Source: a virus
Lineage: Duplodnaviria > Heunggongvirae > Uroviricota > Caudoviricetes > Demerecviridae
Virus record (IMG/VR): IMGVR_UViG_2974640449_000001
Coordinates: 64,242 to 128,241 of that record
Strand: one strand, 5' to 3'
Length of the DNA: 64,000 nt
Positions within the stretch are counted from its first letter, which is position 1, and each line of letters opens with the position of its first letter. The translations under genes and the position numbers were made by a program. This document shows, one piece after another, positions 11,499 to 64,000 of this stretch. Below the pieces are notes generated by a model. The model ran no database searches, was not told where the DNA came from, and saw only the letters and a list, made by a program, of their open reading frames with translations.

Positions 11499-11574
11499 AC
11501 TCCCTTAGCTCAGTGTGTAGAGCACCTCCCTTACAAGGAGGGGGTCGTTGGTTCGAATCCAGCAGGGAGTACCA
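11499..11574 (+). tRNA. tRNA-Val (TAC)
   Basis: TAGCTCAGTGTGTAGAGC D arm, anticodon arm CCTCC-CTTACAA-GGAGG, TTCGAAT T loop, CCA. Confidence 0.75.
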
Positions 11575-11745
11575 TTTCATTTGCATTCTCATGTTATATA
11601 ACGTCTCAGGTCGTGCTGAGGTTATAGAAGCACCCTATACAGAGTAGTGACTGTGGGGAAGAGCTGTGTGCGGACAACACTAGGAAGCATGGGGTTTGAT
11701 AGAGAGTGTCATTGAAATGGTAACACAATAACAAAGGATGAAGAT

Positions 11746-12153: not shown

Positions 12154-12380
12154 ACGAAGTAGAATTAAAAGTACGACAAGACCTTATCGACTCGGAGCTT
12201 AAATCTATCTCTGACAGCACAAAGGTACTGATGAGTCGTAAGAGAAAGCTAGAAAGTGAAAAAGCACGGTTGCAGGCAATCCAACAAACAGCGTGTGACC
12301 ACCCACGAGAAGCACGCGATTTCGTTATGGTTAATAATGAACCCGAATACTTCTGTACATTGTGTGGTAAAGATTTTTAA
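12150..12380 (+). CDS. hypothetical protein with C-terminal CxxC...CxxC zinc ribbon
   Basis: 76 aa; ACDHP...CTLCGK. Confidence 0.45.
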   Translation: MNEVELKVRQDLIDSELKSISDSTKVLMSRKRKLESEKARLQAIQQTACDHPREARDFVMVNNEPEYFCTLCGKDF

Positions 12381-12388
12381 TTAACAAT

Positions 12389-12464
12389 ATTGGGTAGCAT
12401 AATGGTATGCGGCAGGTCTCCAAAACCTTGCATGGAGAGGGTTCGATTCCCTCACCCTTTGCCA
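12389..12464 (+). tRNA. putative tRNA-Trp (CCA), atypical
   Basis: D arm GCAT-AATGGT-ATGC, anticodon loop CTCCAAA, T arm GAGGG-TTCGATT-CCCTC, CCA. Acceptor ATTGGGT/ACCCTTT has two T-T mismatches and the anticodon stem has a bulge. Confidence 0.45.
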
Positions 12465-12480
12465 AAAATAAAGAGGAAAT

Positions 12481-12768
12481 ATGGACGCAGCTAAAAGAAA
12501 ACGCGAAAGAGAAAAGCGTGATCTGGGCATGGCTCCATCTACTGCCAGAGATAGGCTAATGAAAAAGTTAGTATTCTCTCATATACAGTCCAGAGGTATA
12601 GTATGCCACCACTGTGGTAAAGAAATGACAGTAGACACTTTCTCCATAGAGCATATTAAGCCTTGGAGAGGTGAACCGAATGCAGCAGAACTGTACTTCG
12701 ACCTAGATAATGTAACATATAGTCATCGTTCTTGTAACTACAAATTTACCAGACAAAATGGCTACTAA
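12481..12768 (+). CDS. HNH endonuclease
   Basis: CHHCGK...EHIKPW...N...HRSCN: the HNH C..C / EH / N / H..C motif set. Confidence 0.7.
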   Translation: MDAAKRKREREKRDLGMAPSTARDRLMKKLVFSHIQSRGIVCHHCGKEMTVDTFSIEHIKPWRGEPNAAELYFDLDNVTYSHRSCNYKFTRQNGY

Positions 12769-12774
12769 AACAAT

Positions 12775-12850
12775 ACTTCCGTAGCTCAGTTGGTAGAGCG
12801 TTCGACCGATAATCGAAGGGTCACTGGTTCAAGTCCAGTCGGGAGTACCA
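12775..12850 (+). tRNA. tRNA-Ile (GAT)
   Basis: TAGCTCAGTTGGTAGAGC D arm, anticodon arm TTCGA-CCGATAA-TCGAA, T arm ACTGG-TTCAAGT-CCAGT, CCA. Confidence 0.75.
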
Positions 12851-12868
12851 ATTTAAATAAGGGCTAGT

Positions 12869-13039
12869 ATGAAACTATCAATGATTTCACCTCATACCGA
12901 GATTAGAGTACATCGCTACTCTAAGCAGCAAGGAGAGTTGCGCAATAAGCTCAAAAAGTGGAAGAAACAAGGAAAAGTAATACTAGTCAAAACGACAGCG
13001 ACAGAGTTCATCTACAAAAAATACTGTCGCTGGTTATAG
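12869..13039 (+). CDS. small basic protein (56 aa); not in ORF track
   Basis: RBS AAGGGCTAGTATG; MKLSMISPHTEIRVHRYSKQQGELRNKLKKWKKQGKV... Confidence 0.3.
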   Translation: MKLSMISPHTEIRVHRYSKQQGELRNKLKKWKKQGKVILVKTTATEFIYKKYCRWL

Positions 13040-13114
13040 TCCCTTTAGCTCAGTGGTTAGAGCGTCCGGCTCATAACCGGAGGGTCACTGGTTCAAGTCC
13101 AGTAAGGGGCACCA
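13039..13114 (+). tRNA. tRNA-Met (CAT), third CAT tRNA
   Basis: TAGCTCAGTGGTTAGAGC D arm, anticodon arm CCGGC-TCATAAC-region with CAT, T arm ACTGG-TTCAAGT-CCAGT, CCA. Confidence 0.7.
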
Positions 13115-13243
13115 TATTGCAATAGCACAACCCCGTGCTTGGGCGGTGTTCACTCAAGAATCGTAGTCAGTGAACTAAGTAATAAAAACTAGGGGATCGT
13201 AGCATCCGCCCACCAATTATTATAATTATCATGGAGATACTAT

Positions 13244-13420
13244 ATGAAAACAGCTAATCTACTAAAGTTCGCAGCAGAAAAACCATTCGTAGTTAACCGC
13301 CACAAGCGTTCTCAAGAAAAACTACGCTCTCAATGCCAACGTCTTGTTAAATCAGGTCGTCTAGTAGAAGTTGAAAAGACACATGACCAAGTCATGTATC
13401 GTACTCCAGTAACAGAATAA
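13244..13420 (+). CDS. small basic protein (58 aa); not in ORF track
   Basis: RBS ATGGAGATAC; MKTANLLKFAAEKPFVVNRHKRSQEKLRSQCQRLVKSGRLVEV... Confidence 0.3.
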   Translation: MKTANLLKFAAEKPFVVNRHKRSQEKLRSQCQRLVKSGRLVEVEKTHDQVMYRTPVTE

Positions 13421-13421
13421 A

Positions 13422-13497
13422 GCGGGAATAGCTCAGCAGGTAGAGCACTTGGTTGAAGACCTTGGTGTCGCTGGTTCAACTCCAGCTTCCCGCACCA
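13422..13497 (+). tRNA. tRNA-Phe (GAA), weak anticodon stem
   Basis: GCGGGAA/TTCCCGC acceptor, TAGCTCAGCAGGTAGAGC D arm, loop TTGAAGA, T arm GCTGG-TTCAACT-CCAGC, CCA. Confidence 0.65.
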
Positions 13498-13505
13498 CTA
13501 ACAAT

Positions 13506-13583
13506 ACACGACTAGCTCAATTGGATAGTAGCAGCACCCTACGAAGGTGAAGGTTCGGGGTTCGAGTCCCTGGTCGTGTGCCA
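13506..13583 (+). tRNA. tRNA-Arg (ACG)
   Basis: ACACGAC/GTCGTGT acceptor, TAGCTCAATTGGATAG D arm, loop CTACGAA, TTCGAGT T loop, CCA. Confidence 0.7.
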
Positions 13584-13603
13584 ATTTAAAGAGAGAAGAT
13601 ATT

Positions 13604-13888
13604 ATGGCAATCCCCTCAGCAAAAGAATTAACTCAACGTATTGCACTAGATAATGCAGGTAAAGCTCTAGAAGCTGAAAAGGCTCTAGAAGTGGCGTTTA
13701 AGCGAGTAGAATCTATTCCTAGAAATGGAGTCTTCGATATAAGCGTTGGATTAGGTAGTACACATAAAGCTGTTATGGAAGAGCTTTTGCGTAAAGCTGG
13801 ATACCACTTAATATCTATTCACTTCTCTACGTGGCGTAACGAACCTTCAGCACAGATTCGTTTACAAATACCACCACAAGCAGAATAA
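13604..13888 (+). CDS. hypothetical protein (94 aa)
   Basis: Track ORF 13547 overlaps tRNA-Arg. Start moved to ATG 13604 behind RBS AGAGAGAAGAT. Confidence 0.45.
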   Translation: MAIPSAKELTQRIALDNAGKALEAEKALEVAFKRVESIPRNGVFDISVGLGSTHKAVMEELLRKAGYHLISIHFSTWRNEPSAQIRLQIPPQAE

Positions 13889-13890
13889 TT

Positions 13891-13980
13891 GGAGAGATGC
13901 CCGAACTGGTTAAGGGAGCTCCCTGCTAAGGAGTCGGCTGCTAACACGGTCTGTGGGTTCAACTCCCACTCTCTCCGCCA
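13891..13980 (+). tRNA. tRNA-Ser (GCT), type II
   Basis: GGAGAGA/TCTCTCC acceptor, loop CTGCTAA, long variable arm, T arm GTGGG-TTCAACT-CCCAC, CCA. Confidence 0.8.
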
Positions 13981-14109
13981 ATTAATATCCTAGTAACCGC
14001 TAGGGAGTCCACGAGAACTCATAAGGATGCTCGAAGATGCTTTATTATTATAACGATTTTTCTCGAATAGAAACTGTAACTCCTGTTACGGTCACACTAG
14101 GAGAGAAAC

Positions 14110-14313
14110 ATGGATCGAAGACATAAACTAAGAGTAAACTGGCATCGACGTCTTAAAGACGATGAAATTGCAATTGAGAATGGTTTTACCACACGCTTGT
14201 TCAAGCAAACCGAAGTCTATATGTACGACTTATCTTGGTGGGATTACCCACGCAGAACACTTGAGCGTAGTTGGAAAAACCAATCTAAAAAACGTAAACA
14301 ATGGGAACGCTAG
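14110..14313 (+). CDS. hypothetical protein (67 aa, basic)
   Basis: RBS GGAGAGAAACATG. Confidence 0.35.
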   Translation: MDRRHKLRVNWHRRLKDDEIAIENGFTTRLFKQTEVYMYDLSWWDYPRRTLERSWKNQSKKRKQWER

Positions 14314-14341
14314 ACGTTCCCATTTATTTTGAGGAAAAATT

Positions 14342-14722
14342 ATGAGATGGTTTTTTAATAAAGAAAAAACAGAACAAAAAGAAGAGCCTAACGTACCCAT
14401 GCTTGAAAAATATGCTACATCTCTTCCAAGGAAAGAAGACTTATCAGCATACCAGGAGGAGCTCTATCAATACTTCAAAAAAGTAGTAGATACTACTCTG
14501 AGGGAGGCGATAAATAATCACATTAAACCTAAGGATACCTTTCCTTTAAGTATACCAAGGGATAGCTTAAACGTACCTACTGAGGTGTTTAGTTACGTTA
14601 TTCCTAGGCTTCTAAAAGAGAAGGGGTATTCAGTTACACGCTATAGCGAGACAATTACTTTTCCACATGGCGTGTGCCACGAGTACCTACTATTATTAAA
14701 TGAAACAACTTCTCAGGAGTAA
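14342..14722 (+). CDS. hypothetical protein
   Basis: 126-aa ORF, RBS GAGGAAAAATTATG. Confidence 0.45.
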   Translation: MRWFFNKEKTEQKEEPNVPMLEKYATSLPRKEDLSAYQEELYQYFKKVVDTTLREAINNHIKPKDTFPLSIPRDSLNVPTEVFSYVIPRLLKEKGYSVTRYSETITFPHGVCHEYLLLLNETTSQE

Positions 14723-14724
14723 AT

Positions 14725-15273
14725 ATGAAACATCAAATCTATCTAGCAGGTGACATGCTAAACCGTGGTGCTCAACTTCAACGAGCAGAAGAAAAACGTG
14801 ACTTACTTAATCTAGGTTATGACTTATACGTGCCTCAAGATAATAAAGAGATTAATGATAAAGAAAATCTCAACTCGAATGATGGTCTAGCAGAAAAAAT
14901 TGTTCGTGCAGATACTAATGGCATTATGCAGTCTGACATAGTGGTTATGGAAGCCCGTGAAGCAGCATTGGGTACTTGTATTGAACTTGGTCAGATTAAA
15001 GGTATGAAAGACGTCGCTAAAACAGTCTTGTCTATGCTAGAGTCTGGTTGCTCTCTTAAAGAAGTAATTCATAATATGGAGCAAATTCGTGATAAGCTTG
15101 TTCTAGTTCACAACTCAGATATTCGCCGAGCAGGTAATCCTACCGAAACAGGCGATCGTCGCTCTTATGCTCCTCACCAGTACATGTATGGCGTAGTGCT
15201 TGATGTTACTAACGGGCACGGCTACTATGATTGGGGTGAAATTACATACATTCTAGATAAGGACAACGCATAA
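14725..15273 (+). CDS. nucleoside 2-deoxyribosyltransferase-like protein (Ndt/DNPH1 family)
   Basis: N-terminal MKHQIYLAGDML motif typical of the family; 182 aa. Confidence 0.45.
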   Translation: MKHQIYLAGDMLNRGAQLQRAEEKRDLLNLGYDLYVPQDNKEINDKENLNSNDGLAEKIVRADTNGIMQSDIVVMEAREAALGTCIELGQIKGMKDVAKTVLSMLESGCSLKEVIHNMEQIRDKLVLVHNSDIRRAGNPTETGDRRSYAPHQYMYGVVLDVTNGHGYYDWGEITYILDKDNA

Positions 15274-15899
15274 TGTTAGAGAAGATTTGGTCAGCATTAG
15301 CAGTCCTATTAGTAATGGCTGCTTGTCTTATTTCGGGGGCGGATTTATTCGTATCTGCCTTATCTTTAGTGGGTATTCTATTTGTACTTGGAGTTTCCTT
15401 CAAGCACCCTGAATCCCAATTGCTAGGAGCAGTCTTCTGTGCATTCCTAGCATTTGCCTCCTTTGGGGCTGGCTTTTACGCTAATGCCTTAGTTAATGGA
15501 GCTTTTTTACTTCCTGCATCTATATTTGGTTACTTTTATTGGAAACGCCGAACGGGCGCAGGGAATCTTGAGCGGAGTCTCACTTCAGAACAGTTTGGAA
15601 AAGTGGCAGCCATTATTGCGGTTGCAACTATCATAACGTTCTACTTTACTATAGGAGCTGGCGGAGCACTTCCTTTTATGGATGCACTGACTGCGGTAAT
15701 GCCAGTGGCAGCCACCCTATTAATGATTGGAGCTTATCGTGACCAATGGCTATTATGGATACCTTTCAATGCAATCCAAGCCTTTATGTGGTTCTCGGCA
15801 GCCTCTTTACAACCCGCAGTATTAGCTGTGTTTGTATTAAAAATGGTCTTTCTAGTCAACTCAGTGATTGGATACTATCAATGGAGAAAGGGGGCGTAA
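15273..15899 (+). CDS. multi-pass membrane protein, PnuC-like nicotinamide riboside/NMN transporter candidate
   Basis: 208 aa, about 6-7 hydrophobic helices with Trp-rich segments (FGYFYWKRR, WLLWIPFNAIQAFMWF). Confidence 0.45.
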   Translation: MLEKIWSALAVLLVMAACLISGADLFVSALSLVGILFVLGVSFKHPESQLLGAVFCAFLAFASFGAGFYANALVNGAFLLPASIFGYFYWKRRTGAGNLERSLTSEQFGKVAAIIAVATIITFYFTIGAGGALPFMDALTAVMPVAATLLMIGAYRDQWLLWIPFNAIQAFMWFSAASLQPAVLAVFVLKMVFLVNSVIGYYQWRKGA

Positions 15900-15921
15900 G
15901 CCTCCTTCTTAAAAGTTTTAT

Positions 15922-15950
15922 TTGCTAAACTCTCTTATTTAACGTATAAT
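15922..15950 (+). promoter_or_regulatory. early promoter TTGCTA-17-TATAAT
   Basis: tTTGCTAaactctcttatttaacgTATAATtattacataaatt. Confidence 0.55.
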
Positions 15951-15981
15951 TATTACATAAATTAATGAGAGAGGTTATCAA

Positions 15982-16242
15982 ATGATTGACACTTGGGAAT
16001 GGGCAGAAGTTGCCGCACATATTTTAGGTCTTCCAGAAGAAACTGATGAAGAAGTAGTTGAACGAGAACTCCTCCAAGAGTTCGGTCTAGACTTGGAATG
16101 TTTTGGCAACATTGCCGATAAGCTCCTTGGCATGACCGTGCCTGTTGAAACAGCTCTAGGTGGCTCTATTGTACAAGCATTTGTTAAATTCGAAGACACC
16201 CATGTAAGAGCACTAGCTAAGAAGGATTTCAAACGTGATTAA
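15982..16242 (+). CDS. hypothetical acidic protein (86 aa)
   Basis: ORF behind promoter 15922. Confidence 0.45.
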   Translation: MIDTWEWAEVAAHILGLPEETDEEVVERELLQEFGLDLECFGNIADKLLGMTVPVETALGGSIVQAFVKFEDTHVRALAKKDFKRD

Positions 16243-16382
16243 ACTATCTTTACAACAAGCAGAAACTATGCTAGCTCTTCTTAATGACATTGAAGAAGAG
16301 AAAGGCAATCTACTTCCCCAAGAAGAAGAATTACAAGCCTATCTTGACGCAGCAATTGATGCTGAAAAAGATAAAAACTGAA

Positions 16383-16411
16383 TTGCTAAACTGCTTTAAA
16401 GTCTGTATAAT
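16383..16411 (+). promoter_or_regulatory. early promoter TTGCTA-17-TATAAT with leader, upstream of tRNA-Cys/His
   Basis: aaTTGCTAaactgctttaaagtctgTATAATagttccataaagttga. Confidence 0.6.
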
Positions 16412-16437
16412 AGTTCCATAAAGTTGATTAAACAAAT

Positions 16438-16514
16438 GGGTTGTATGCTGAAGTGGACGAAGCGCGGGATTGCAAACCCCGTCTTACTCGGTTCGAGTCC
16501 GAGACTTCCCTCCA
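16438..16514 (+). tRNA. putative tRNA-Cys (GCA), atypical
   Basis: Anticodon arm CGGGA-TTGCAAA-CCCCG, T arm CTCGG-TTCGAGT-CCGAG, CCA. Acceptor GGGTTGT/ACTTCCC has two T-T mismatches. Confidence 0.45.
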
Positions 16515-16520
16515 AACAAT

Positions 16521-16598
16521 GGTGTTAGTAGCTCAAATGGATAGAGCCCCTGCTTGTGACGCAGGAGGTTGCGGGATCGTACCCCGTCTAACACCCCA
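16521..16598 (+). tRNA. tRNA-His (GTG) with an encoded G-1
   Basis: G-1 paired to C73, TAGCTCAAATGGATAGAGC D arm, anticodon arm CCTGC-TTGTGAC-GCAGG, CCA. Confidence 0.8.
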
Positions 16599-16606
16599 AA
16601 TTTAAG

Positions 16607-16810
16607 GTGATAGTAGTGATTAAGAAAATCATTCGTCGTAATAAACAAAAATTTACTGCAATCTTCAAAGAAGGTCGCAGAATGTTCCCGAAAGGTGAGT
16701 TCAACAATGTAACTTACCTAGGACAGTCCAACGGTATGAATCTATTTCGTGCTGATGAAGGCTTTGCTTACAAAGGCATGACTTTCTGTAACGAAGCGAC
16801 TTGGTCTTAA
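16607..16810 (+). CDS. hypothetical protein (67 aa), GTG start
   Basis: ORF between tRNA-His and tRNA-Arg; RBS AAGG. Confidence 0.35.
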   Translation: MIVVIKKIIRRNKQKFTAIFKEGRRMFPKGEFNNVTYLGQSNGMNLFRADEGFAYKGMTFCNEATWS

Positions 16811-16820
16811 ACAAATTAAT

Positions 16821-16897
16821 GCGCCCTTAGCTCAGCTGGATAGAGCACGTCCCTTCTAAGGATGTGGTCGTAGGTTCGAATCCTACAGGGCGTGCCA
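16821..16897 (+). tRNA. tRNA-Arg (TCT)
   Basis: GCGCCCT/AGGGCGT acceptor, TAGCTCAGCTGGATAGAGC D arm, loop CTTCTAA, T arm GTAGG-TTCGAAT-CCTAC, CCA. Confidence 0.8.
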
Positions 16898-16916
16898 TTT
16901 TCTATTGGAGAAGATA

Positions 16917-17081
16917 ATGTTCACACTAGGCGTAATATGGCTTATTTTTCAAGGTATAACTTGTACTGCTCTAGCTGATTGTAAAAGTGAAGACATGTGT
17001 AATAAAATTATGTGGATGCCAACGATAGTACGTTGGATTATCTTTACTGTCCCGTCCTTAGTCGTATGGGCTAATAAATAA
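16917..17081 (+). CDS. small membrane protein (54 aa); not in ORF track
   Basis: RBS ATTGGAGAAGATAATG; MFTLGVIWLIFQGITCTALADC... Confidence 0.3.
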   Translation: MFTLGVIWLIFQGITCTALADCKSEDMCNKIMWMPTIVRWIIFTVPSLVVWANK

Positions 17082-17092
17082 CGGAGAAGATT

Positions 17093-17422
17093 ATGTTTAC
17101 TAGAGAACAAAAATACGTTGTAATATCTCTTAGAGATATTCGTGAAGGACTAGATGAAGGTCAAAAAATGGCTTTAGCTGGTCTACTATCAAAGATGGAA
17201 AACCATCGTAAAGCTCGTGGCAGAGAGCCAATTGAAGCAGTAGTTATTGACAAAAACACTCTAGGTGAACTACCGTATGAGGACGGTTTCAAAATTGTTG
17301 AATCAGCAGTACATGCAAAACATCAACGAAACTGCGAACATACATATAAACGTGACATTGCAGTTATGGGTGGTCTAGACGTACTAACCTGTACCAAATG
17401 TGGTCACGTAGAACTTGAATAA
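17093..17422 (+). CDS. hypothetical protein with C-terminal zinc ribbon (C..H..C..C)
   Basis: 109 aa; RBS GGAGAAGATTATG. Confidence 0.45.
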   Translation: MFTREQKYVVISLRDIREGLDEGQKMALAGLLSKMENHRKARGREPIEAVVIDKNTLGELPYEDGFKIVESAVHAKHQRNCEHTYKRDIAVMGGLDVLTCTKCGHVELE

Positions 17423-17427
17423 ACAAC

Positions 17428-17514
17428 GCTGGCGTGGTGGAATTGGTAATACACGTGGGGCTTAAAACCCCATGCCCTAGAGGATTGAGAGTTCGAGTCT
17501 CTCCGCCAGTACCA
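17428..17514 (+). tRNA. tRNA-Leu (TAA), type II
   Basis: GCTGGCG/CGCCAGT acceptor, anticodon arm TGGGG-CTTAAAA-CCCCA, long variable arm, T arm GAGAG-TTCGAGT-CTCTC, CCA. Confidence 0.75.
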
Positions 17515-55224: not shown

Positions 55225-55228
55225 AATT

Positions 55229-55258
55229 CTTGACAGTGAAACAAAAATCCCTTATAAT
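55229..55258 (+). promoter_or_regulatory. consensus promoter TTGACA-18-TATAAT with no downstream ORF
   Basis: tcTTGACAgtgaaacaaaaatcccTTATAATataactgtactctagag. Confidence 0.55.
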
Positions 55259-55264
55259 ATAACT

Positions 55265-55400
55265 GTACTCTAGAGATATTTCTAGCAGTGCGAGGCTCAG
55301 GACAACCTTTTCCAGTCTTGATACTGGGAGTGTGGGTGTCCTGGGTAAGATGCCTCGCAGCTGGGAAAGTTATGGGGGAGTATTAACTGAAGAAAACTGA
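55265..55400 (+). ncRNA. candidate small structured RNA transcribed from promoter 55229
   Basis: No ORF. Nested complementary segments GCGAGGC/GCCTCGC, CAGGACAAC/GTGTCCTG, CCAGTCTTGATACTGG. Confidence 0.35.
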
Positions 55401-55499
55401 TATTATAGATGAACAGAATACGCCCCGCATCCCTCTAGCTCTACTCTAGTATCAACTTATTTAATCCCTAGCTTCTTATGATGTTAGGGATTTTGTCAT

Positions 55500-56020
55500 T
55501 TTAGCACCTATAATATTATCTCTAGAATTTGCACCTATAATATTATCTCTAGAATTTGCACCTATGATTTGGCTTGTTATGATGCGAAGCATTGAGTCTA
55601 GCCATGATTCCCCATGTCAATTCTAAAGCATAGGAATTGCACCTAATTGTATAGGTTATTTCGATAATAGTAAAAGACGGATTGACACCGGTTCAAGGAG
55701 CGACCCCCGTAATTGTCAATTGGTTTTTTCAAAAATCTGCCCCAAACGCCCCAAAACTTTATTTTCCTCCATAAAACCCACCAAATAGCACCAAAATCTC
55801 CATATATCTCTAGAATTCGCACCTATCTCATATCCCTAGCACCTATCAATTTTGCACCTATCAATTTTGCACCTACCCCAATAGCGGCATGTTTTGTGCG
55901 CAGCACGAGTCTAGCCGCAAACCCCCATGTCAATTTTGCACCTATAGAATTTGCACCTATAGAATTTGCACCTACATGTATCACTTTTGCACCAATCGGA
56001 TTTGCACCCGCAGGCGCAGA
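55500..56020 (+). repeat. iteron-like array: about 13 copies of a TTTGCACCTAT(a/c) core, including 28-bp and 19-bp tandem units, plus two copies of a GAGTCTAGCC...CCCATGTCAATT block
   Basis: ttTGCACCTATaatattatctctagaa x2.5 at 55500-55575; GCACCTATcaatttt x2 at 55840-55880; tttGCACCTATagaa x2 then variants at 55925-56015. Confidence 0.75.
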
Positions 56021-56086
56021 GGATTAGAGATTACTAATAAAGTATGCCCTAAATTAGGGTTCACTACATTAGGGATTTCTAATAGA

Positions 56087-56170
56087 CGTCTGGATGGCTA
56101 TACGTCCAGATGGCTAGAAGTCTAGAAGTCCAGATGGCTATACGTCCAGATGGCTAGAAGTCCGTATGCC
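56087..56170 (+). repeat. tandem direct repeats (about 22-bp unit tacgtccagatggctagaagtc, 3 or more copies)
   Basis: cgtctggatggctatacgtccagatggctagaagtctagaagtccagatggctatacgtccagatggctagaagtccg. Confidence 0.7.
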
Positions 56171-56199
56171 ATACCGTATAAAATATGGCACGATTTTTG

Positions 56200-56320
56200 C
56201 TTATTAAAAAGTTATCCACAACTGTATATTTATACATGGCTCTAAAACGCTCTATACAGAGTTATCCACAACCTTATCCACCGCAAAACTACTGTATATT
56301 TATACAGTGCTTTTCAGGTA
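56200..56320 (+). promoter_or_regulatory. DnaA-box cluster (TTATCCACA x2, TTATCCACC) interleaved with CTGTATAtttATACAG palindromes; putative replication-origin element
   Basis: DnaA boxes at 56212-56220, 56262-56270 and 56274-56282; palindromes at 56222-56238 and 56291-56308. Confidence 0.55.
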
Positions 56321-56557
56321 GCAGATTATTCCGAATACCGTTTAAAGCTCTTGTAAGCCTCGCTAACAGCATCCTAGCGTTGTAGCAATACCCTAGCAAG
56401 GGGTAAGCCCTAAACAGCCCACACGTAGTACATGCAAGAACCATGCCAACCTGCCTGACGGGCGCGCCGAAATGATAACTATTCTCATTTGCCCGTATAC
56501 AGTACGCCATACGGTAAAAGGTCAAACAAAACGGCGTACCGTGACGCCGTAACAGTT

Positions 56558-56695
56558 TTAATTTTTTAGTCGCTCTACTACCCAATCGCAGCGGCGGTCT
56601 AACTTATCTAATTTTTCGTCAATAACTCGCTGATTCTCTAGTATCAGCTTTTGATTGTTAACGACTAGCTGCAACAGCTCTATAATCTTTTTCAT
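56558..56695 (-). CDS. small coiled peptide (45 aa), paralog of 48874-49026; not in ORF track
   Basis: ATGA-coupled to the upstream minus-strand gene; MKKIIELLQLVVNNQKLILENQRVIDEKLDKLDRRCDWVVERLKN. Confidence 0.3.
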   Translation of the reverse strand: MKKIIELLQLVVNNQKLILENQRVIDEKLDKLDRRCDWVVERLKN

Positions 56696-56916
56696 CGCGG
56701 CTCAAAATCTTTTACTATTTCTAGAAATTCACGGATAGTAATTCCATCGCATCGTATTTCTTCATCCGAGTGTTGAGTATGGCGTACTGTAAACTTGTCG
56801 TATTCTACTTGCTCAATTTCTGAGACTAGCACACCTTTATAGTATAAACCACGTTTTTTGTGTGGCTCATAAACTTGTTGCAAGAATGATACTAACATTT
56901 CACTAGGTCTTAACAT
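56692..56916 (-). CDS. hypothetical protein (74 aa)
   Basis: Minus-strand ORF in a translationally coupled chain. Confidence 0.45.
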   Translation of the reverse strand: MLRPSEMLVSFLQQVYEPHKKRGLYYKGVLVSEIEQVEYDKFTVRHTQHSDEEIRCDGITIREFLEIVKDFEPR

Positions 56917-57158
56917 TAGTCTATCCCCTGTTCACTGATAAACTCACCTATAGCAAACATGCGCTCGCTATCGTTCGGGTAAGCGTCTGAATCAGCCATT
57001 TCAACAATAATAGCTAAATTAGATAAGCCTTGTTTAGCGATTACTAAATCACGGAGCATGTTTTGAGTTACTACGTCTAGCGGATTATGTATCAAACGTG
57101 TATTGAGCATATGCTCAATACGTGCTAGTGCTTCCTGACTTTGTTTTATAGTAGCCAT
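56916..57158 (-). CDS. hypothetical acidic protein (80 aa)
   Basis: Coupled ATGA overlaps on both sides. Confidence 0.45.
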   Translation of the reverse strand: MATIKQSQEALARIEHMLNTRLIHNPLDVVTQNMLRDLVIAKQGLSNLAIIVEMADSDAYPNDSERMFAIGEFISEQGID

Positions 57159-57352
57159 TACCAGGTAGCCTCCAATTGATAAAGCTTCTCAATTACATCG
57201 AATTGCTCGCCTTGCTCATTTTGCCAAACTTGCCCAAATTCGGTGTTTTCTACGTGCTTCATTGCCATAGGTATTGTGTAATATTGCATTTCCCCCATAA
57301 ATGCAATATTACACATCCAGACTTGCCCTAGGGTTTCGACATGTACTTTCAT
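57158..57352 (-). CDS. hypothetical acidic protein (64 aa)
   Basis: Coupled. Confidence 0.4.
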   Translation of the reverse strand: MKVHVETLGQVWMCNIAFMGEMQYYTIPMAMKHVENTEFGQVWQNEQGEQFDVIEKLYQLEATW

Positions 57353-57520
57353 TTTTTAGCCTCCATTAGCTCGCCTAATGAGATTACTATAACCATTGCT
57401 AGAAATGCTCCAGTCATTTTTCAATCACCAAAATTTTGTTATAGTCCATACGTACAGTAAAAAACGGCTTGCCGTTTCTAACCGCCCACAATAGGGCGGT
57501 AGCGTAGTTGTCAAACTCCA

Positions 57521-57841
57521 TTAGACTTTTAACCAACCATTAACAAACGTTGCGCCTTCATAAATAGAACGCCATGTTAATAAATCAGCTCTAGCGTATT
57601 GAAAAAGCATACCGCCATTAGTTGCGCCCTTAGCAAAAGCAATGGCATATGTCAATACTTTTGCTTTTAAAATTTCTTCGACTGACTCAAACAAACTAAT
57701 ATGGGTTGTCAGGTCAAAATGATACTCTTTGTTTGACAAAAAGCATTGCGCCATTTCCATGCGCTTGCTGATAGAAGTGTCAGCATTCAATTGGTAAGCC
57801 GTGCTTACTACTGGAGTAGTTAGATATTGTTTGTATTCCAT
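57521..57841 (-). CDS. hypothetical protein (106 aa)
   Basis: Minus-strand ORF; RBS present. Confidence 0.45.
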   Translation of the reverse strand: MEYKQYLTTPVVSTAYQLNADTSISKRMEMAQCFLSNKEYHFDLTTHISLFESVEEILKAKVLTYAIAFAKGATNGGMLFQYARADLLTWRSIYEGATFVNGWLKV

Positions 57842-57900
57842 TTTGTTGCCCTCGCTTTCTAGCGGTAGTTAGTGGGGACTTTCGTCCCCCCGTTGATTAA

Positions 57901-58284
57901 TTAGTGCGCCATAATGCAATCAGGGTTTTCCCCGATTACCGTATATTCTTCAATCGCACGCTTACCAACACTTTCCCAAGATTGGTCATTTTTTGTTTTA
58001 TTAGCTACACCGTGTAGGTAATAGCCGTTACCAGTATCACGCTCTAATGAGAATGGTTTACCCATATCAAAAGCATTATTATAAAAGTGATGTTCCCAAG
58101 TACCTTCGACATCAAACCAGCGCCACATATAATGCTCGAACATAGCTTTCATTTTGTCTAGTGCTAGCTGACATTCAACCTCGCTGATAATATCAGCCTC
58201 AAAACCGTTGCGAATAATGGCAACGGCTTTATTCCAACCTAGTGAATCAATGGTATCAGACAAGACAAGAAAATCAATTTTCAT
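57901..58284 (-). CDS. hypothetical protein (127 aa)
   Basis: Start moved to the ATG at 58284 behind RBS GAGAGG (track start 58332). Confidence 0.45.
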   Translation of the reverse strand: MKIDFLVLSDTIDSLGWNKAVAIIRNGFEADIISEVECQLALDKMKAMFEHYMWRWFDVEGTWEHHFYNNAFDMGKPFSLERDTGNGYYLHGVANKTKNDQSWESVGKRAIEEYTVIGENPDCIMAH

Positions 58285-58392
58285 GGTAAAACCTCTCGCC
58301 AAAATCGGTGGCGGTATCCGTTTAGGCATCAATTGCCTAGGTCTTTATAATACTAAAACCTAGGCAGGATGTAAAGTGATTTAGCTCACATT

Positions 58393-58728
58393 TTACGATG
58401 TATAGTGAAAATCTACTTGGTCTATACCAATTTCACGCCATACCATAGAACTTGTTTCAAGTCCATAGTTATCTAGCATATCTGATAAATTGGCTAGTTC
58501 GTCTAGGTCGCAATAGCCCTCGATACCCATATCAGAGTTATAGAACATCATACCGTAGGCAGGATGAATCATAACGGCTAACTGAGAATCGTTATCAATA
58601 TACCATATGGTATTTTCAGGGTCTTCATTAAATGCGTTCCCGTCTTCCTTAGTAACAAGGATTATTGAGTCTAGACTCAATAGTGTTGGTGTTTCGGTAC
58701 AGTTAAAAGCCATTATTTCAATCTCCAA
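58393..58728 (-). CDS. hypothetical strongly acidic protein (111 aa)
   Basis: RBS TTGGAGATTGAAATAATG on the minus strand; D/E-rich. Confidence 0.45.
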   Translation of the reverse strand: MEIEIMAFNCTETPTLLSLDSIILVTKEDGNAFNEDPENTIWYIDNDSQLAVMIHPAYGMMFYNSDMGIEGYCDLDELANLSDMLDNYGLETSSMVWREIGIDQVDFHYTS

Positions 58729-59049
58729 TACGGGTAAAAACCTACCGCCATAGCGGTAATAAACATTACTGATTCAAACATACTATGCCTACCTTGTCAA
58801 ATAGTTTTTTCATGGTAGAAGCCGAGGCGATAAACTCGCCAGTGTCGATACTTACACACCACCAAATTACATCAAAGAAAATACGATACATTTTACCGCC
58901 TCCGTTGTTTGGGTAGGTCTATATTTACTCATATTCTAGCCCACTTGTCTAATAACATTTAGTTATATAAAACGATTCTGGCAACGCCAGGCGTTATAAG
59001 CGCTGTAAGCCATTCTGAGAGGTTCTAACAAAAAGCCTTACTTTAATAT

Positions 59050-59180
59050 GTCTAGGTTGTGGATAACCGCTCACAATGGATTCTAGGGGCAGGAAACGCC
59101 ATTCTATATCGGATAAGCTGTGATTTAGGGTAGATAACTTCCATTTTCCTGTTGATAAGTTGTGGATATACAGTAGATAA
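59050..59180 (+). promoter_or_regulatory. second DnaA-box cluster in inverted orientation (TGTGGATAA, TGTGGATAT, GATAAG variants)
   Basis: 59058-59066 TGTGGATAA is the reverse complement of TTATCCACA; 59161-59169 TGTGGATAT; ggataagctgtg at 59111. Confidence 0.5.
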
Positions 59181-59424
59181 CCAGTATTATTAGAGATTGC
59201 TAATGTGAATAAGTCTGTTGATAAAAAGTTGGCACGAAAATTTCCATAGAACAAAGTCAAATAAAAATTCGCTATATAATATAAACAAAAATTCTTTGAC
59301 AAATAAAAATCCTTCGTTCTAGTTCTATTCACAAAAGTGCATGAATATGCAGTTTTTAGGGCAAAAGTGCATAAACCATTTAGTAATGCAATGGTATGGC
59401 TAAGGGCTAAAATCGCTTAGAATC

Positions 59425-59470
59425 GCATACAGAGCGTTTTAAAGGTATGTATAAATATACAGTAGTTTTT
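59425..59470 (+). repeat. inverted copy (about 85% identity) of the 56216-56310 palindrome/DnaA element
   Basis: The reverse complement aaaactactgtatatttatacatacctttaaaacgctctgtatgc aligns with 56216-56258 and 56283-56308. Confidence 0.55.
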
Positions 59471-59749
59471 AAGTTGGCATGATTTTTGAGGGTATGACAA
59501 AGTTCACATTTTATATATACAAGTTTGACTTTTCATTCTAGCTATGGTAGACGCGCGCCCGTTTCCTTATATTTATAGGGCAAAAATACCTGATAGGCAA
59601 AACCTATCAATCTAGTGTTTTTTAAAGATTTAAACGATTAGACTAATTTTCTCAATTCGCTATTATATACCCATACCAACGAGACAGGGCAGCAACAAAA
59701 CCCTATCAAGTTGAGTATAGAAAGACTGAAAAGTTTTTCAAAAAAGTAG

Positions 59750-59778
59750 TTGACAAGCCAAACGGCTTTTGAGATACT
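59750..59778 (+). promoter_or_regulatory. promoter TTGACA-17-GATACT upstream of the pre-early-like genes
   Basis: gTTGACAagccaaacggcttttgaGATACTactaacg; followed at 59858-59890 by the perfect inverted repeat GTTAACCGA..TCGGTTAAC. Confidence 0.4.
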
Positions 59779-59942
59779 ACTAACGTTCCCAAGGGAACAC
59801 GCTCTTTAACAATTTGGAATATGTGATTTGACCCATTGCTTACTGGACTGTTTAACGAGTGTTAACCGTTAACCGATTCATAACGAGTCGGTTAACTGAG
59901 AAACACTCTCATTTAAACTAACCTATTAAGAGGAAAAATATC

Positions 59943-60386
59943 ATGGCTAAGAAATGGACAGAAGAATCAGCAGCAAAAGCGGCAGAACTTTACAATGCTA
60001 AACTAGAAGCAGACGGTAAAGAAGCAGCAGCGCACAACGATTTTCTAGATGAAATCGCTAAACACGAAGAAGTTCAAGCGGTATCAGGTAAAGCAGTGCG
60101 CTCAAAACTTACTGTTATGGGTATCTATCAGAAACCGGACGCAGTTGCAAGTGTTGCGAAAACTAATACAGTGCGAAAAGAGCATTATGTACGTGCTCTA
60201 GCTCATACGCTAGGCTTAGATGTTGATGATTTGGACAGCCTTAAAAACGCTAAAATGTCAGCCCTAGAAGCTGTTTCGACTGCAATCGGTATTACTGACG
60301 TTATGACAGCAAGTGCAAAAGACTACAAACCAGATTTAGAAAAGGTTTGTGAAGCATTCGAAAATGCTCGCGGTCTAGACATTTAA
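59943..60386 (+). CDS. hypothetical protein (147 aa), pre-early-type
   Basis: RBS GAGGAAAAATATCATG. Confidence 0.5.
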   Translation: MAKKWTEESAAKAAELYNAKLEADGKEAAAHNDFLDEIAKHEEVQAVSGKAVRSKLTVMGIYQKPDAVASVAKTNTVRKEHYVRALAHTLGLDVDDLDSLKNAKMSALEAVSTAIGITDVMTASAKDYKPDLEKVCEAFENARGLDI

Positions 60387-60399
60387 CCGTCTAATAAAT

Positions 60400-60480
60400 T
60401 GGGGTAGCAATACCCCAATTTACAGTGTAAATTGCTTATCAGTTTACACTGTAAATTAAACCCGTAAATGGAGATATAAT
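60400..60480 (+). promoter_or_regulatory. hairpin (GGGGTAGCAATACCCC) plus 13-bp inverted-repeat operator (TTTACAGTGTAAAT / ATTTACACTGTAAA) and GGAGAT RBS
   Basis: ggggtagcaataccccaaTTTACAGTGTAAATtgcttatcagTTTACACTGTAAATtaaacccgtaaatggagatataatcATG; a second copy is at 60868-60955. Confidence 0.55.
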
Positions 60481-60481
60481 C

Positions 60482-60853
60482 ATGTCACAACAAACTCAAA
60501 TCATTGCATTAGGTTCACTTCTAGAAGCAGGTAACGCAAAATCAGAGCTACAACAAAAAGTTGCTAAACTAATTAACGTGCGTTTTGGTTGGCGTAAAAA
60601 CGACCGTATTTCTAGCAATACGTTACAAGCTGTTATCAATTTGATTGAAACATACGGTGGCAAAAAGCTGTTTCTAGAAAGCGAGCTAGATTCATTAGTA
60701 TATGCTAATAAAGCGGCTAAACTGACAGTATTCAGCCTACTATGTGAGGCGTTAAAAATCACTGATGTAACAGAGCGTAAAAATATTATGTCTATTGTTA
60801 CTAGTGGCGGGGAGCGCGAATTTCCGGTTCAAGTTCTAAAAGCATTCTGTTAG
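60482..60853 (+). CDS. hypothetical protein (123 aa)
   Basis: RBS ATGGAGATATAATCATG. Confidence 0.5.
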   Translation: MSQQTQIIALGSLLEAGNAKSELQQKVAKLINVRFGWRKNDRISSNTLQAVINLIETYGGKKLFLESELDSLVYANKAAKLTVFSLLCEALKITDVTERKNIMSIVTSGGEREFPVQVLKAFC

Positions 60854-60867
60854 TCAGGTATAAATTA

Positions 60868-60955
60868 GGGTAGCAATACCCTAATTTACAGTGTAAATTT
60901 ACCCAAGTTTACACTGTAAATTTCAAACCAACCCCATAGTGGAGATATACACAAA
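60868..60955 (+). promoter_or_regulatory. second copy of the hairpin plus palindromic operator
   Basis: gggtagcaataccctaaTTTACAGTGTAAATttacccaagTTTACACTGTAAATttcaaaccaaccccatagtggagatatacacaaATG. Confidence 0.55.
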
Positions 60956-62610
60956 TGACTAAACAACTAGTAGAAAACAAAGCTCAAATCCTTAAACTTG
61001 CAAAAGGCGAAAACTTTTGGGGCAAACGCCTAGACTCAAAACGTCGTGAGGTTGCAATTTCAATCCGTGAAGCTCTTAAACTAGATATTCATTCTAGCGA
61101 TTTGGTTGATTTTCTGGACGATAACAAACCAGTTAAAAAGACGCAGCAAAAATCACACGCTCAACAGGCAAGTGCAGACATTGAGCCAACTTTTGCAGGT
61201 AGTTTGCAGGGGCGTGATTATGAAAATCTAGACGATGGTTTATATATCATCACGGCAGCGCAAAACAATACTAAACCACATCCAGTATTAAATACATTGC
61301 TCTCAATGGCTAAATCATTGGATGCTGAATTTGGTATCATGCCGATTAAATACACAACTACGTTGCAAGGCTTGGAGCGTAAAAAGCCTAGTTTTCACGC
61401 AGACGTTAAAAAGCATCTGCTAGATAATGTCGATACATGGTTGGGTGGCGAAGGTAACGTGCTACTTGCTAACAGTGCTCAAATTCTACCGACTGCAAAA
61501 CAACCTATCAATGCAGCCGAAAAGCTTAATACAGGCGAGTCAATGACTATCGTTGCATCGCCTCGACGCCAAACAAAAACCCTACCTCGCCAGAAAAACG
61601 GTGCGCATCGTTGGGTTTATACAACGTCCGTTTGTACTCTTAAACACTACACTGATAGTCGTGCAGGGGCAGAGGCAGAAGCTGAGCATTGTTTCGGTGG
61701 TATCTTGATTCAAGTCACTAACGGCATGGTAAATCACCGCCGCCTAGTAGCTGACGAAAACGGCGTTATTGTTGATAATGGTTCGGTGTACTTCCCTGAT
61801 GGTACAATCAAAGCTTACAACGATGTATTTGATAATCAGCCCGTTATTGTGCTAGGTGATTTACACTGCGAAAAAATGTGCGACGACTCATTTCAACGTG
61901 CTACAGATTGGGCATTCGCTAACAATCCTCGCCTAATTGTGGTACACGATGCGCTAGATTTTATGAGCCGTAACCATCATAACCGTGAAGATTGGACATT
62001 CTTGTATCAAATGCAAGACCGTGCAGTAATCGAAGATTTAACCGATGTTATCAATCACTTGAATGCGCTTGCTGACATTGCGCCAGTATTTATTGTTGAA
62101 TCAAATCATGATTTAGCCCTAGATTCTTGGCTACGTGATAATAAATTCGACGTACGCAAAGACCCGAAAAACGCCCGTACTTATCACGCTCTAATGCTTG
62201 CTTACATTGAAGCTATGGATAACGGCACTTTTGACGACCTAGCGAAAATGGATTTAGCGTTTGCAGCCCTAGCCGATAAGCTACCAGAACTAAACCCAAA
62301 TATTGAGTTTGGCAAGCTGGATAATCAAAAACTAGCTTATGGTTATGATATTTCAATGCACGGTCACGTTGGTACAGGTGGGGCGAGAGGTAGCGCAGTA
62401 TCATTTAAGAAAATGCGCATTAAAACAATTACAGCTCATACCCATTCACCTTTTGAAGATAACAACAATATTGTTGTCGGTGTAACTGGTTCGATGGAAA
62501 TGGGCTACAACAAAGGCGGTACAACTTGGGACAGAGCAAACGCTATTGTTTATCCTAACTCAACTTGTCAGCTTATCCCGATGTATCTAATCGGTGAACA
62601 ACAATACTAA
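60955..62610 (+). CDS. A1-like pre-early protein (551 aa) with metallophosphoesterase-type motifs
   Basis: VVLGDLHCE, VVHDALD, GHVGTGG, HTHSP; size and position (next to the dmp-like gene) match T5 A1 (556 aa), which is an inference. Confidence 0.5.
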   Translation: MTKQLVENKAQILKLAKGENFWGKRLDSKRREVAISIREALKLDIHSSDLVDFLDDNKPVKKTQQKSHAQQASADIEPTFAGSLQGRDYENLDDGLYIITAAQNNTKPHPVLNTLLSMAKSLDAEFGIMPIKYTTTLQGLERKKPSFHADVKKHLLDNVDTWLGGEGNVLLANSAQILPTAKQPINAAEKLNTGESMTIVASPRRQTKTLPRQKNGAHRWVYTTSVCTLKHYTDSRAGAEAEAEHCFGGILIQVTNGMVNHRRLVADENGVIVDNGSVYFPDGTIKAYNDVFDNQPVIVLGDLHCEKMCDDSFQRATDWAFANNPRLIVVHDALDFMSRNHHNREDWTFLYQMQDRAVIEDLTDVINHLNALADIAPVFIVESNHDLALDSWLRDNKFDVRKDPKNARTYHALMLAYIEAMDNGTFDDLAKMDLAFAALADKLPELNPNIEFGKLDNQKLAYGYDISMHGHVGTGGARGSAVSFKKMRIKTITAHTHSPFEDNNNIVVGVTGSMEMGYNKGGTTWDRANAIVYPNSTCQLIPMYLIGEQQY

Positions 62611-62676
62611 TTAGTGTTTTATTAATAGGCATTCTAGCGAGTGCCTATTGTTGAACCCACTAATGGAGATAGACAA

Positions 62677-63180
62677 ATGTCAATTGAAGCAGTATTAACT
62701 CAAAAAGCAGAAGCTAAACAAGAAGCCAAAAAACAAAAAGCTATCTATCAAGAAGCTAAACACAAGCACAGCATAGCAGCTAGTAAAGCGTTATTTACAG
62801 AAGCCGATAAAGAGCTAATAGCCGAGCAGGTTAACACGCTTAAAAGTTTTGGTACTACGCCTCTTATGTCATGGGGGGACTTATCAAAACATGGCAATAT
62901 TCTAAAATATCTCAAGCTGTTTGATATTGACAAGGACGTGAAATTATTTGCTACGTCTATCCTTTGTGACGACGACTTGAAAAAAGCTATTACTGAATAC
63001 GACACGGCAAAAGAAATTTACTGCAAAGCATTGCGTGAATTAATGTTGTCTAAAGCTACACTTCTAAATGCTTTGATTCAGAATAAATTGTTTGGTTTCT
63101 TACGTGTCAGTACCAAGAAGTTAGCAAAAGCGGCAGCAGATATGCGCAAGCATTCAGAACGCTACAACACACAATACTAA
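62677..63180 (+). CDS. hypothetical pre-early protein (167 aa)
   Basis: Hairpin AATAGGCA-ttctagcgag-TGCCTATT then RBS AATGGAGATAGACAAATG. Confidence 0.45.
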   Translation: MSIEAVLTQKAEAKQEAKKQKAIYQEAKHKHSIAASKALFTEADKELIAEQVNTLKSFGTTPLMSWGDLSKHGNILKYLKLFDIDKDVKLFATSILCDDDLKKAITEYDTAKEIYCKALRELMLSKATLLNALIQNKLFGFLRVSTKKLAKAAADMRKHSERYNTQY

Positions 63181-63260
63181 TCCTACGCCATACGGCTCGA
63201 CGGGCGCAAATGTGACGCCCGTCACACTTTACAAATTACCCAATTATGGAGATTAAACCA

Positions 63261-63899
63261 ATGACTAAAGCATATGTATTCGACCTAGACGGCACAACTA
63301 TCGACAGCTTTCACCGTGTTGCGCCATGCCTAGACAGCAACGGCAACCTAAACCTAGATAAGTATATCAAAGAGGCTTGCACACCTGAGAAAGTCGCAAA
63401 TGATACACTCTTACCACTTGCCGGATATATGCAGCAGCTTATTAAGGATGGTCAAATAGTAATCATTCTCACCGCCCGTTACATGCTTAATCATGATTAT
63501 GTTTACCTACGCAAGAATCAATTGAGAACGCCTATCATTTGCAGCCGTGACCAATTGAGCCGTGTATTTGGTGAAGGTAATGCAGCCCGTATCAGTGCAA
63601 TGTCAGATGCGCCATATAAGCGCCAGTGGTTCGAGCATTTATTTGCTAGTATGCCACACGTTACAGAGTGGTCATTCTTTGACGACCATGATGGTATATT
63701 AGAAATGGCTAATTCATTAAAAGGTGTTACAGCTACGGATGCTAAACTCATGAATGAGCTGTTACAAATGCAATGGGCTGATATTTACCGCCAAGGCGAA
63801 CAAGACACCGCCGAGTTGATTCAAGACCTAATTGCTGAATGTTCAACTCAAGATGTGATTTGCAAGCCTGAATGGATTGATGAGCTTTTAGCTCAATAA
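63261..63899 (+). CDS. dmp: HAD-family 5'-deoxyribonucleotidase-like protein (Dmp-like)
   Basis: MTKAYVFDLDGTTID HAD motif I; hairpin GACGGGCG..CGCCCGTC plus RBS TATGGAGATTAAACCAATG upstream. Confidence 0.55.
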   Translation: MTKAYVFDLDGTTIDSFHRVAPCLDSNGNLNLDKYIKEACTPEKVANDTLLPLAGYMQQLIKDGQIVIILTARYMLNHDYVYLRKNQLRTPIICSRDQLSRVFGEGNAARISAMSDAPYKRQWFEHLFASMPHVTEWSFFDDHDGILEMANSLKGVTATDAKLMNELLQMQWADIYRQGEQDTAELIQDLIAECSTQDVICKPEWIDELLAQ

Positions 63900-63925
63900 A
63901 TAAAGAAAAGCTGTACAAATAAGAA

Positions 63926-63950
63926 TGGCTCTCAATTGAGAGCCATTATC
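63926..63950 (+). terminator. hairpin terminator
   Basis: ATGGCTCTCAATTGAGAGCCAT followed by T-rich sequence. Confidence 0.5.
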
Positions 63951-64000
63951 ATCTAGGGGGCGGTAATGAGACTAGTTCTCATTTGCATATAGGGGTACAC

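Follow-up and report, generated by a model that had tools for sequence, protein, structure and literature searches.

A conserved structured non-coding RNA predicted beside the terminal repeat of Vibrio phage Ceto, with a counterpart of equivalent architecture in T5-group phages

We have analysed in silico a stretch of 64,000 nucleotides (the window) that makes up the last 64 kb of the genome of Vibrio phage Ceto (MG649966, Demerecviridae, T5-like; record position = window position + 64241), and describe here a promoter and a folded, non-coding transcription unit located just outside the terminal repeat, very probably a real RNA gene. Positions 55700-64000 of the window match positions 1-8301 of the record without a single mismatch and are thus the right-hand one of two direct terminal repeats of 8301 bp, whose boundary we have taken as deposited. 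As the repeat starts at 55700, the RNA gene lies in unique DNA, with 205 bp between the end of its terminator and the inner repeat boundary. The non-coding stretch in which this happens (55225-56557) spans the boundary and separates two convergent gene sets. The original prediction, made from the letters of the window alone, had placed here an orphan promoter followed by a structured RNA devoid of open reading frames (ORFs). It had offered a regulatory small RNA (sRNA), an RNA decoy or an origin primer or activator transcript as its role, and had proposed RNA folding, an Rfam scan and covariation across relatives as ways to check it.

Promoter, rod and terminator

The promoter occupies positions 55230-55258 on the plus strand, with the -35 hexamer TTGACA at 55230-55235, a spacer of 17 nt and the -10 hexamer TATAAT at 55253-55258. 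It begins 6 nt past the stop codon of gp203 (55224), and its -10 hexamer lies 442 bp from the repeat boundary. Scoring 12/12 against the sigma-70 consensus, it is the sole perfect match in the 64-kb window. It had been read originally as TTGACA-18-TATAAT at 55229; the promoter itself stands, with the spacer and the start corrected, and so does its description as an orphan. Five sites in the window, all of them on the plus strand, differ from the consensus by at most one mismatch, where 0.68 would be expected and none of 100 shuffles had as many. The other four, which score 11/12 and are found at 20220, 28625, 38206 and 49043, are likely early promoters.

From this promoter an RNA of ca. 230 nt is predicted on the plus strand (55265-55494), its start placed 6-8 nt past the -10 hexamer and its end at the U-run that follows a terminator hairpin. 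The segment 55265-55500 (236 nt) folds at -81 kcal/mol (z = -4.0), with none of 200 shuffled sequences folding as well, and the first 109 nt past the predicted start reach -47.3 kcal/mol by themselves (z = -4.9). These 109 nt hold the dominant element, a long imperfect rod hairpin (55275-55371) in whose core (55290-55358) GCGAGGC (55290-55296) pairs with GCCTCGC (55352-55358), enclosing in turn CAGGACAAC (55298-55306), complementary to GTGTCCTG (55336-55343), and the apical CCAGTCTTGATACTGG (55312-55327). The plus-strand fold of the Ceto rod is 8.6 kcal/mol more stable than that of its reverse complement and contains 8 G-U pairs versus 0 in the antisense, and the sense fold is likewise the more stable one in 17 of the 19 rods compared. 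The G-U pairs and the strand bias together favour an RNA hairpin made from the plus strand. Further on, an intrinsic-terminator-like hairpin (55463-55494, plus strand; AATCCCTAGC...GTTAGGGATT followed by UUUU) folds at -15.6 kcal/mol (z = -5.3), from which it follows that the unit runs beyond ca. 55400. Thus, of the structured RNA of about 140 nt first proposed, the structure and all of the nested segments are present, but the length must be extended to ca. 230 nt with a terminator of its own, and the most conserved part of the molecule (55368-55447) falls largely outside the interval, ending at 55400, that had been assigned to it.

The unit is non-coding, as had been proposed. Its single plus-strand ORF has 32 codons, starts with GTG (55288-55386) and is broken in relatives, and by eye there is no Shine-Dalgarno-like sequence upstream of the GTG at 55288. 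A small peptide or type I toxin encoded by this frame was considered and discarded, no ORF being kept across the two classes of Vibrio phages described below. The Rfam 15 covariance models, run in sensitive mode, gave no match up to E = 10 in 55229-55500, nor up to E = 5 on the RNA of seven relatives or of T5, the families searched including 6S, pRNA, Qrr, SRP, tmRNA and Y RNA-like. No tRNA or tmRNA was detected at the RNA by a dedicated scan; the window has 25 tRNA genes on the plus strand (9348-17514), as is typical of T5-like phages. The RNA family is unannotated in all the genome records that we examined. The two proteins encoded directly upstream belong to no Pfam family and matched only PHROGs of unknown function.

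Conservation among Vibrio phages

By blastn we found related DNA in 52 records of Vibrio T5-like phages, and examined 22 loci that amount to 15 distinct RNA sequences. All 22 keep a sigma-70-type promoter with a 17-nt spacer, a rod, a 3' module and a terminator, the RNA ranging from 225 to 313 nt and ending 147-205 nt before a motif that marks the repeat boundary. They fall into two classes. In the first (Ceto, Luma, Direpillow8, Hades, Thalassa, pVp-1 and KIT04), homologues of gp202 and gp203 are found upstream, the promoter is TTGACA-17-TATAAT and the RNA measures 225-240 nt. In the second (PVo5, River4, Chloris, Dax, Athena, Pontus, VPT02, VPG01, VF16 and others), the upstream gene is a different one, the promoter reads TTGAAA, TTGATA or TTTACA-17-TACAAT with a TGn extended -10, and the RNA (295-313 nt) carries two additional 5' hairpins. 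The RNA unit is constant even though the gene that precedes it is not. Moreover, phages of the Dax type have a separate terminator (GGGAGACAACATGTCTCCCTTTT) after the upstream gene and before the RNA promoter, which makes the RNA an independent transcription unit in these phages. The terminator of the RNA itself exists in six different variants among the relatives, all of which fold and all of which end in UUUU.

These observations bear on one alternative, that we are looking at a mere 3' untranslated region (UTR) with the terminator of the early operon, stabilising early mRNAs and insulating the boundary, behind a promoter that has no function of its own. Ceto has no terminator between the stop codon of gp203 (55224) and the promoter (55230), so that transcripts of the operon should indeed run to the terminator of the RNA. 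However, a promoter with a 17-nt spacer has been kept in 22/22 loci, in two sequence versions, and in the T5 group as well; Dax-type phages end the operon before it; and in Ceto it is the only perfect (12/12) promoter of the window. We regard an explanation as a 3' UTR as very unlikely.

A long rod is predicted for every homologue, always in the same place, although its arms are unalignable by sequence. For this reason MAFFT and RNAalifold, applied to the whole RNAs, did not recover the rod, and they were replaced by folds of the individual sequences, an arm-swap test and sub-alignments, the rod alignments being partial. In the arm-swap test, matching arms gave a mean of -36.6 kcal/mol versus -23.7 kcal/mol for arms taken from different phages, and the matching pair was the best in all comparisons between distant lineages. 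In the alignable columns of the basal helix 92.9% of the cells are paired, versus 81% in shuffles (0 of 500 as high) and 20-49% when the arms are slid, with the reservation that the sequences are phylogenetically related and shuffle controls therefore overstate significance. Two columns of this helix show changes from G-C to A-U or U-A. The 5' hairpin P1 shows a swap between U-A and A-U, with five sequences each way, and the terminator stem also covaries (CCCTAG/CTAGGG with CTCTAG/CTAGAG). The promoter and the structure that had been proposed from a single sequence are thus retained, with compensated pairing, in the homologous phages, and so is the terminator.

Behind the rod lies the best-conserved stretch of the RNA among Vibrio relatives, a 3' module at 55368-55447 (plus strand) that comprises a GGGGG run (55374-55378), an A-rich loop (GAAGAAAAC), a near-invariant GATGAACAGAATACGCCCCGC (55408-55428) and the first of the CTCTAG repeats. 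Its GAUGAACAG segment is predicted to be mostly unpaired. The sole consensus pairs of the module, GGGG with CCCC, are invariable among the Vibrio relatives and are hence uninformative for or against its structure. A covariance model of the module (R1) found one site in the window, at 74.7 bits, and no paralogue. A pairing of the GGGGG run with the CCCCC of the boundary motif was also considered and dropped, since it fails in relatives. So was a host origin of the conserved segment, for which 596 Gb of bacterial genomes gave 52 matches, close to the number calculated for chance and none of them in Vibrio. Homologue searches of IMG/VR and metagenomes returned chance matches or the same cultured phages only. 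By eye, CTAG (mostly within CTCTAG, TCTAGA or CCTAGG) looks dense throughout 55225-56000, that is, in the 3' region of the RNA, the terminator stems and the repeats next to the boundary, and it does likewise in T5 (positions 1300-1750 of the T5 locus sequence), Vibrio and T5 groups being alike in this respect; CTAG may be a protein-binding half-site.

The repeat boundary and the T5 group

The inner boundary of the repeat at 55700 is spanned by a motif (55660-55723, ..GGTTCAAGGA|GCGACCCCCG.., or AAGGA|GCGACCCCCG) that is kept in 22/22 loci, and the repeat end annotated for phage VF16, derived with PhageTerm, corresponds to the same nucleotide as the Ceto boundary. Eleven iterons of the TTTGCACCTA type are arranged in the same orientation (plus strand) on both sides of it. 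Four are in unique DNA, at 55501, 55528, 55555 and 55636 (55501-55645), in an array that begins 7 nt past the U-run of the RNA; the other seven are inside the repeat (55816-55995). They are candidate binding sites for the terminase or some other end-recognition protein. Within the region 55816-56282 there are also DnaA boxes, one at 56212 and a pair at 56262 and 56274, 3 nt apart, and a second, inverted cluster of DnaA boxes is found ca. 2.9 kb away (59058-59224). Next to the DnaA boxes we noticed palindromes resembling LexA boxes (TACTGTATATTTATACAGTG) at 56221-56236, 56290-56309 and 59445-59464, three versus 0.15 expected. A block with 8-bp periodicity occupies 56083-56178 (TAGAAGTC / CAGATGGC / TATACGTC). 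An Rfam match to YenS (55955-56119), which overlaps the iterons and the start of this block, scores 23.9 bits versus a gathering score of 80 and is probably spurious. The coding sequence (CDS) annotated in GenBank as gp204 (55713-56027) translates straight through the iterons (...INFAPINFAP...), for which reason it and its left-end copy gp1 are probably not genes.

This layout is that of Repeat Region 3 of T5, and the RNA lies at the outer edge of the Ceto counterpart of that region. In both phages the inner end of the repeat is occupied by a long untranslated region that overruns into unique DNA (475 bp in Ceto, 270 bp annotated in T5) and repeats in the same orientation straddle the repeat end, with a shared core (GGATTTGCAC / TTTGCACCTA); the DRD repeat of T5 (TCGGATTTGCACA) has this iteron core in common with Ceto and also straddles the end of the long terminal repeat (LTR). 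Both have DnaA boxes paired 3 nt apart and an inverted second cluster ca. 2.9 kb off, the Ceto clusters mirroring the IRD'/IRC' and IRC/IRD arrangement described for T5. Repeat Region 3 has been described as the injection-stop region of T5, with the origins of replication reported near the centre of the genome (Davison, bioRxiv 10.1101/866236). The iterons of the junction noted in the original prediction are real, and the field that they form corresponds to Repeat Region 3 of T5, with no identified origin.

The same comparison weighs on the idea that the transcript primes or activates a replication origin, opening or priming the DNA by the iterons and DnaA boxes. There are precedents for such transcripts in ColE1 RNA II, the R-loop origins of T4 (oriF/oriG), the primary origin of T7 and the activation of the lambda origin, and like these the Ceto locus combines a strong promoter and a folded RNA with repeats and DnaA boxes nearby. 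The promoter is directed at the 11 iterons and at three DnaA boxes, two of them paired, and the RNA carries a G-run; G-runs help R-loop formation in other systems. However, unlike in those origins, an intrinsic terminator separates the RNA from the repeats and no replication initiator gene is recognised beside the RNA, the two upstream proteins having no known family. The iterons, moreover, straddle a terminase cut site, and the equivalent arrangement of T5 has been assigned to another function, its origins being reported elsewhere. A role as origin transcript seems highly improbable to us, and it is the least supported of the three functions first suggested.

An equivalent RNA is predicted in the same place in T5 and its relatives. 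A promoter of the sequence TTGACA-17-TATCAT, extended by TG and directed at the LTR, comes after ORF018, the last of the early genes of T5, and the 357 nt past this promoter fold at -91.3 kcal/mol (z = -4.45) into a structure dominated by a rod of ca. 150 nt. The promoter and the long-rod RNA are unannotated in AY587007 (ca. 10400-10800, minus strand). Together with T5, the phages DT571/2, Ace, Stitch and Lindwurm and 23 usable IMG/VR loci gave a set of 28 distinct sequences. In all 28 the parts come in the same order, a sigma-70-type promoter, a small 5' hairpin, a phage-specific rod, GGGGG, an A/U-rich stretch, a conserved AAGATGATACACnTGTTGCC, CTAGG, the DRD iterons and the LTR end. The promoter has a TTGACA-like -35 and an extended -10 (TGTTATAAT, or TGTTATCAT in T5). 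The rods of this group have a conserved basal stem (GGGGCGATGATTATTACA / GTAATACTCACGCGCCCC) on which the apical part has been exchanged in a cassette-like fashion. We found no match in E. coli to the conserved module of T5.

Covariation in the T5-group RNA is clear. Thirteen of 48 pairs are changed on both sides, compared with 8.1 in shuffles and 0-3 when the strands are slid, in a total of 24 changed cells compared with 9.9, and the covariation score is 0.234 versus 0.114 (0 of 500 shuffles), the reservation about shuffle controls in related sequences applying here too. Three compensatory double changes were found among nearly identical T5-type sequences. As for the relationship between the two groups, Vibrio and T5 RNAs share short motifs (CTCATGA...GGGGGnTCTTAT / CTATTTAC, and AGATGA(A/T)ACA...GCC..GC..CTAG). 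They are equivalent in architecture and only possibly homologous, given that homology has not been demonstrated statistically. Neither a promoter nor an RNA at this place is mentioned in Davison's description, in the T5 record or in the other T5-group records examined, and our full-text literature searches found no paper describing one.

Possible roles of the RNA

The explanation that we consider best, with a probability of roughly one half, is that the locus encodes, as a gene standing alone, a stable, structured early non-coding RNA of ca. 230 nt that works as an RNA. A strong promoter, a stable, protected body, a terminator of its own (in the Vibrio phages) and selection on sense pairing are what characterises an RNA acting as a molecule. 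Host sigma-70 RNA polymerase would initiate at the perfect consensus promoter, right after the last early gene, and transcribe first the long rod, whose sequence appears to drift or to be swapped between phages with its pairing maintained, and then the sequence-conserved 3' module (GGGGG, the A-rich loop and GAUGAACAGAAUACGCCCCGC), to halt at the hairpin and UUUU, with 7 nt left to the iteron array beside the repeat boundary. If the infection proceeds as in T5, the repeat end would enter the cell first and the RNA gene would be the first complete transcription unit on the DNA of the second step, in which case the RNA should be expected at the very start of the early phase. The rod may be a stabilising or protein-binding scaffold, and the conserved, largely unpaired 3' segment may offer a recognition surface to a conserved partner, which could be another nucleic acid or a protein of the host or the phage. 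That the Ceto RNA acts in trans, as a riboregulator or as a protein-binding RNA, is an idea that we would stop just short of calling probable; the roles of regulatory sRNA or decoy first proposed for it are plausible.

Known systems close to this explanation are the stand-alone and 3'-end sRNA genes of bacteria and prophages, which also have a sigma-70-type promoter, a structured non-coding body and an intrinsic terminator, as well as a conserved unpaired segment, an A-rich stretch and a location at the 3' end of an operon. Of the traits of Hfq-dependent sRNAs, the Ceto RNA has the A-rich GAAGAAAAC; its U-tail has 4 nt and no target in the window rises above the shuffle background. It also differs from these genes in that the Vibrio RNAs are longer (225-313 nt), are dominated by a rod of ca. 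90-130 nt and belong to no Rfam family. The arms of the rod, compared with other Ceto loci as possible sources or antisense partners, gave no match longer than 12 nt.

Several points weigh against this explanation. Both ends of the Ceto RNA (55265 and 55494) are predictions. A U-tail of 4 nt is short for a classical Hfq-dependent sRNA and may allow read-through, and in the T5 group, unlike in the Vibrio phages, there is no obvious intrinsic terminator. When the window was searched for antisense targets of the conserved 3' segment, the best candidate, at -30.5 kcal/mol, fell within the range of shuffled queries. The compensatory changes of the Vibrio set, moderately strong as evidence, come from few independent lineages, and covariation lends no support in this set to a structure of the 3' module; as the module is conserved without covariation, its conservation could reflect a DNA-level site belonging to the neighbouring repeat-boundary module. 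Nor is there statistical support for sequence homology between the Vibrio and T5 RNAs, model R1 finding nothing in T5.

In the main rival interpretation the element is a cis-acting part of the genome-end machinery and what matters is transcription towards the boundary, the nascent RNA or the inverted repeat itself. Its tasks could be the recognition and processing of concatemer junctions, the duplication of the repeat, the start of packaging at the iteron-flanked cut site or the restart of the second-step transfer. Its position is fixed at 147-205 nt from the boundary motif in 22/22 Vibrio loci, whatever the upstream gene, and is equivalent relative to the repeat ends of T5 and Stitch; the terminator abuts the iteron array, and iterons lie on both sides of the cut site; and the 3' module shows sequence conservation but no covariation, as would be expected of a DNA site. 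The precedents are phiOR of T7 and T3, the pause at the concatemer junction and the junction hairpin of T7. T7 and T3 packaging depends on transcription, which counts in favour of such a role. So does the DNA hairpin containing the terminal repeat reported in T7 infection (Chung and Hinkle 1990, as cited in PMC4281155). In these phages, as in Ceto, a promoter that no coding sequence requires is located in unique DNA and directed at a direct terminal repeat within a few hundred bp, and an inverted repeat adjoins the junction. The Ceto promoter, however, is one for host sigma-70 polymerase and not for a phage polymerase. Where T7 and T3 have a class II pause site, Ceto has a canonical hairpin terminator, 205 bp short of the junction, and its repeat measures 8.3 kb and not 160 bp. 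The G-U pairs and the sense bias of the rod, moreover, speak for a hairpin in RNA rather than for a DNA hairpin or cruciform, and in the Vibrio group the terminator precedes the iterons. T5-like genomes are syntenic overall, which makes a fixed position weak evidence when taken alone, and a sigma-70 consensus promoter suggests activity early rather than late in infection, as far as timing can be told from the promoter. We see a cis-acting role as possible, although rather unlikely.

A related and still more tentative proposal is that the RNA, or its synthesis by the host polymerase, is a working part of a T5-type genome-end machinery. It might take part in the recognition or cutting of concatemers, in the duplication of the 8-10 kb repeat or in the restart of transfer, the phage-specific rod serving as specificity determinant. 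The obvious comparison is with the pRNA of phi29, also a structured phage RNA (120-230 nt) made by the host polymerase from a strong early promoter (predicted in the case of Ceto) and encoded by the genome end where packaging is thought to begin. However, the Ceto RNA has no match to pRNA in Rfam and nothing ties it to the portal; phi29 belongs to another phage family, and its genome is protein-primed whereas that of Ceto is cut from concatemers by a terminase. Such a function would thus resemble phi29 pRNA, or T7 phiOR with its junction pause, in spirit, while being unrelated to either.

For some 70 years T5 has served as a model phage. The DNA that separates its first-step-transfer genes from its early genes continues to be treated as a plain "noncoding region" (PMC10644984; Davison, bioRxiv 10.1101/866236). 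What we predict at this place is a strongly promoted RNA with a structure under selection, both in the branch of the coliphages and Salmonella phages and in the Vibrio branch. It provides a new candidate RNA family for Rfam and corrects the spurious CDS calls of the region. It also bears on three questions of the biology of these phages, namely how injection stops and restarts in T5, how the long repeats are cut and duplicated, and how the early programme is launched. Should the RNA prove to be an ordinary riboregulator, it would be a modest addition. A tie to the genome ends, if there is one, would instead make it an RNA cofactor of a new kind, involved in genome maturation in a phage that uses a terminase.

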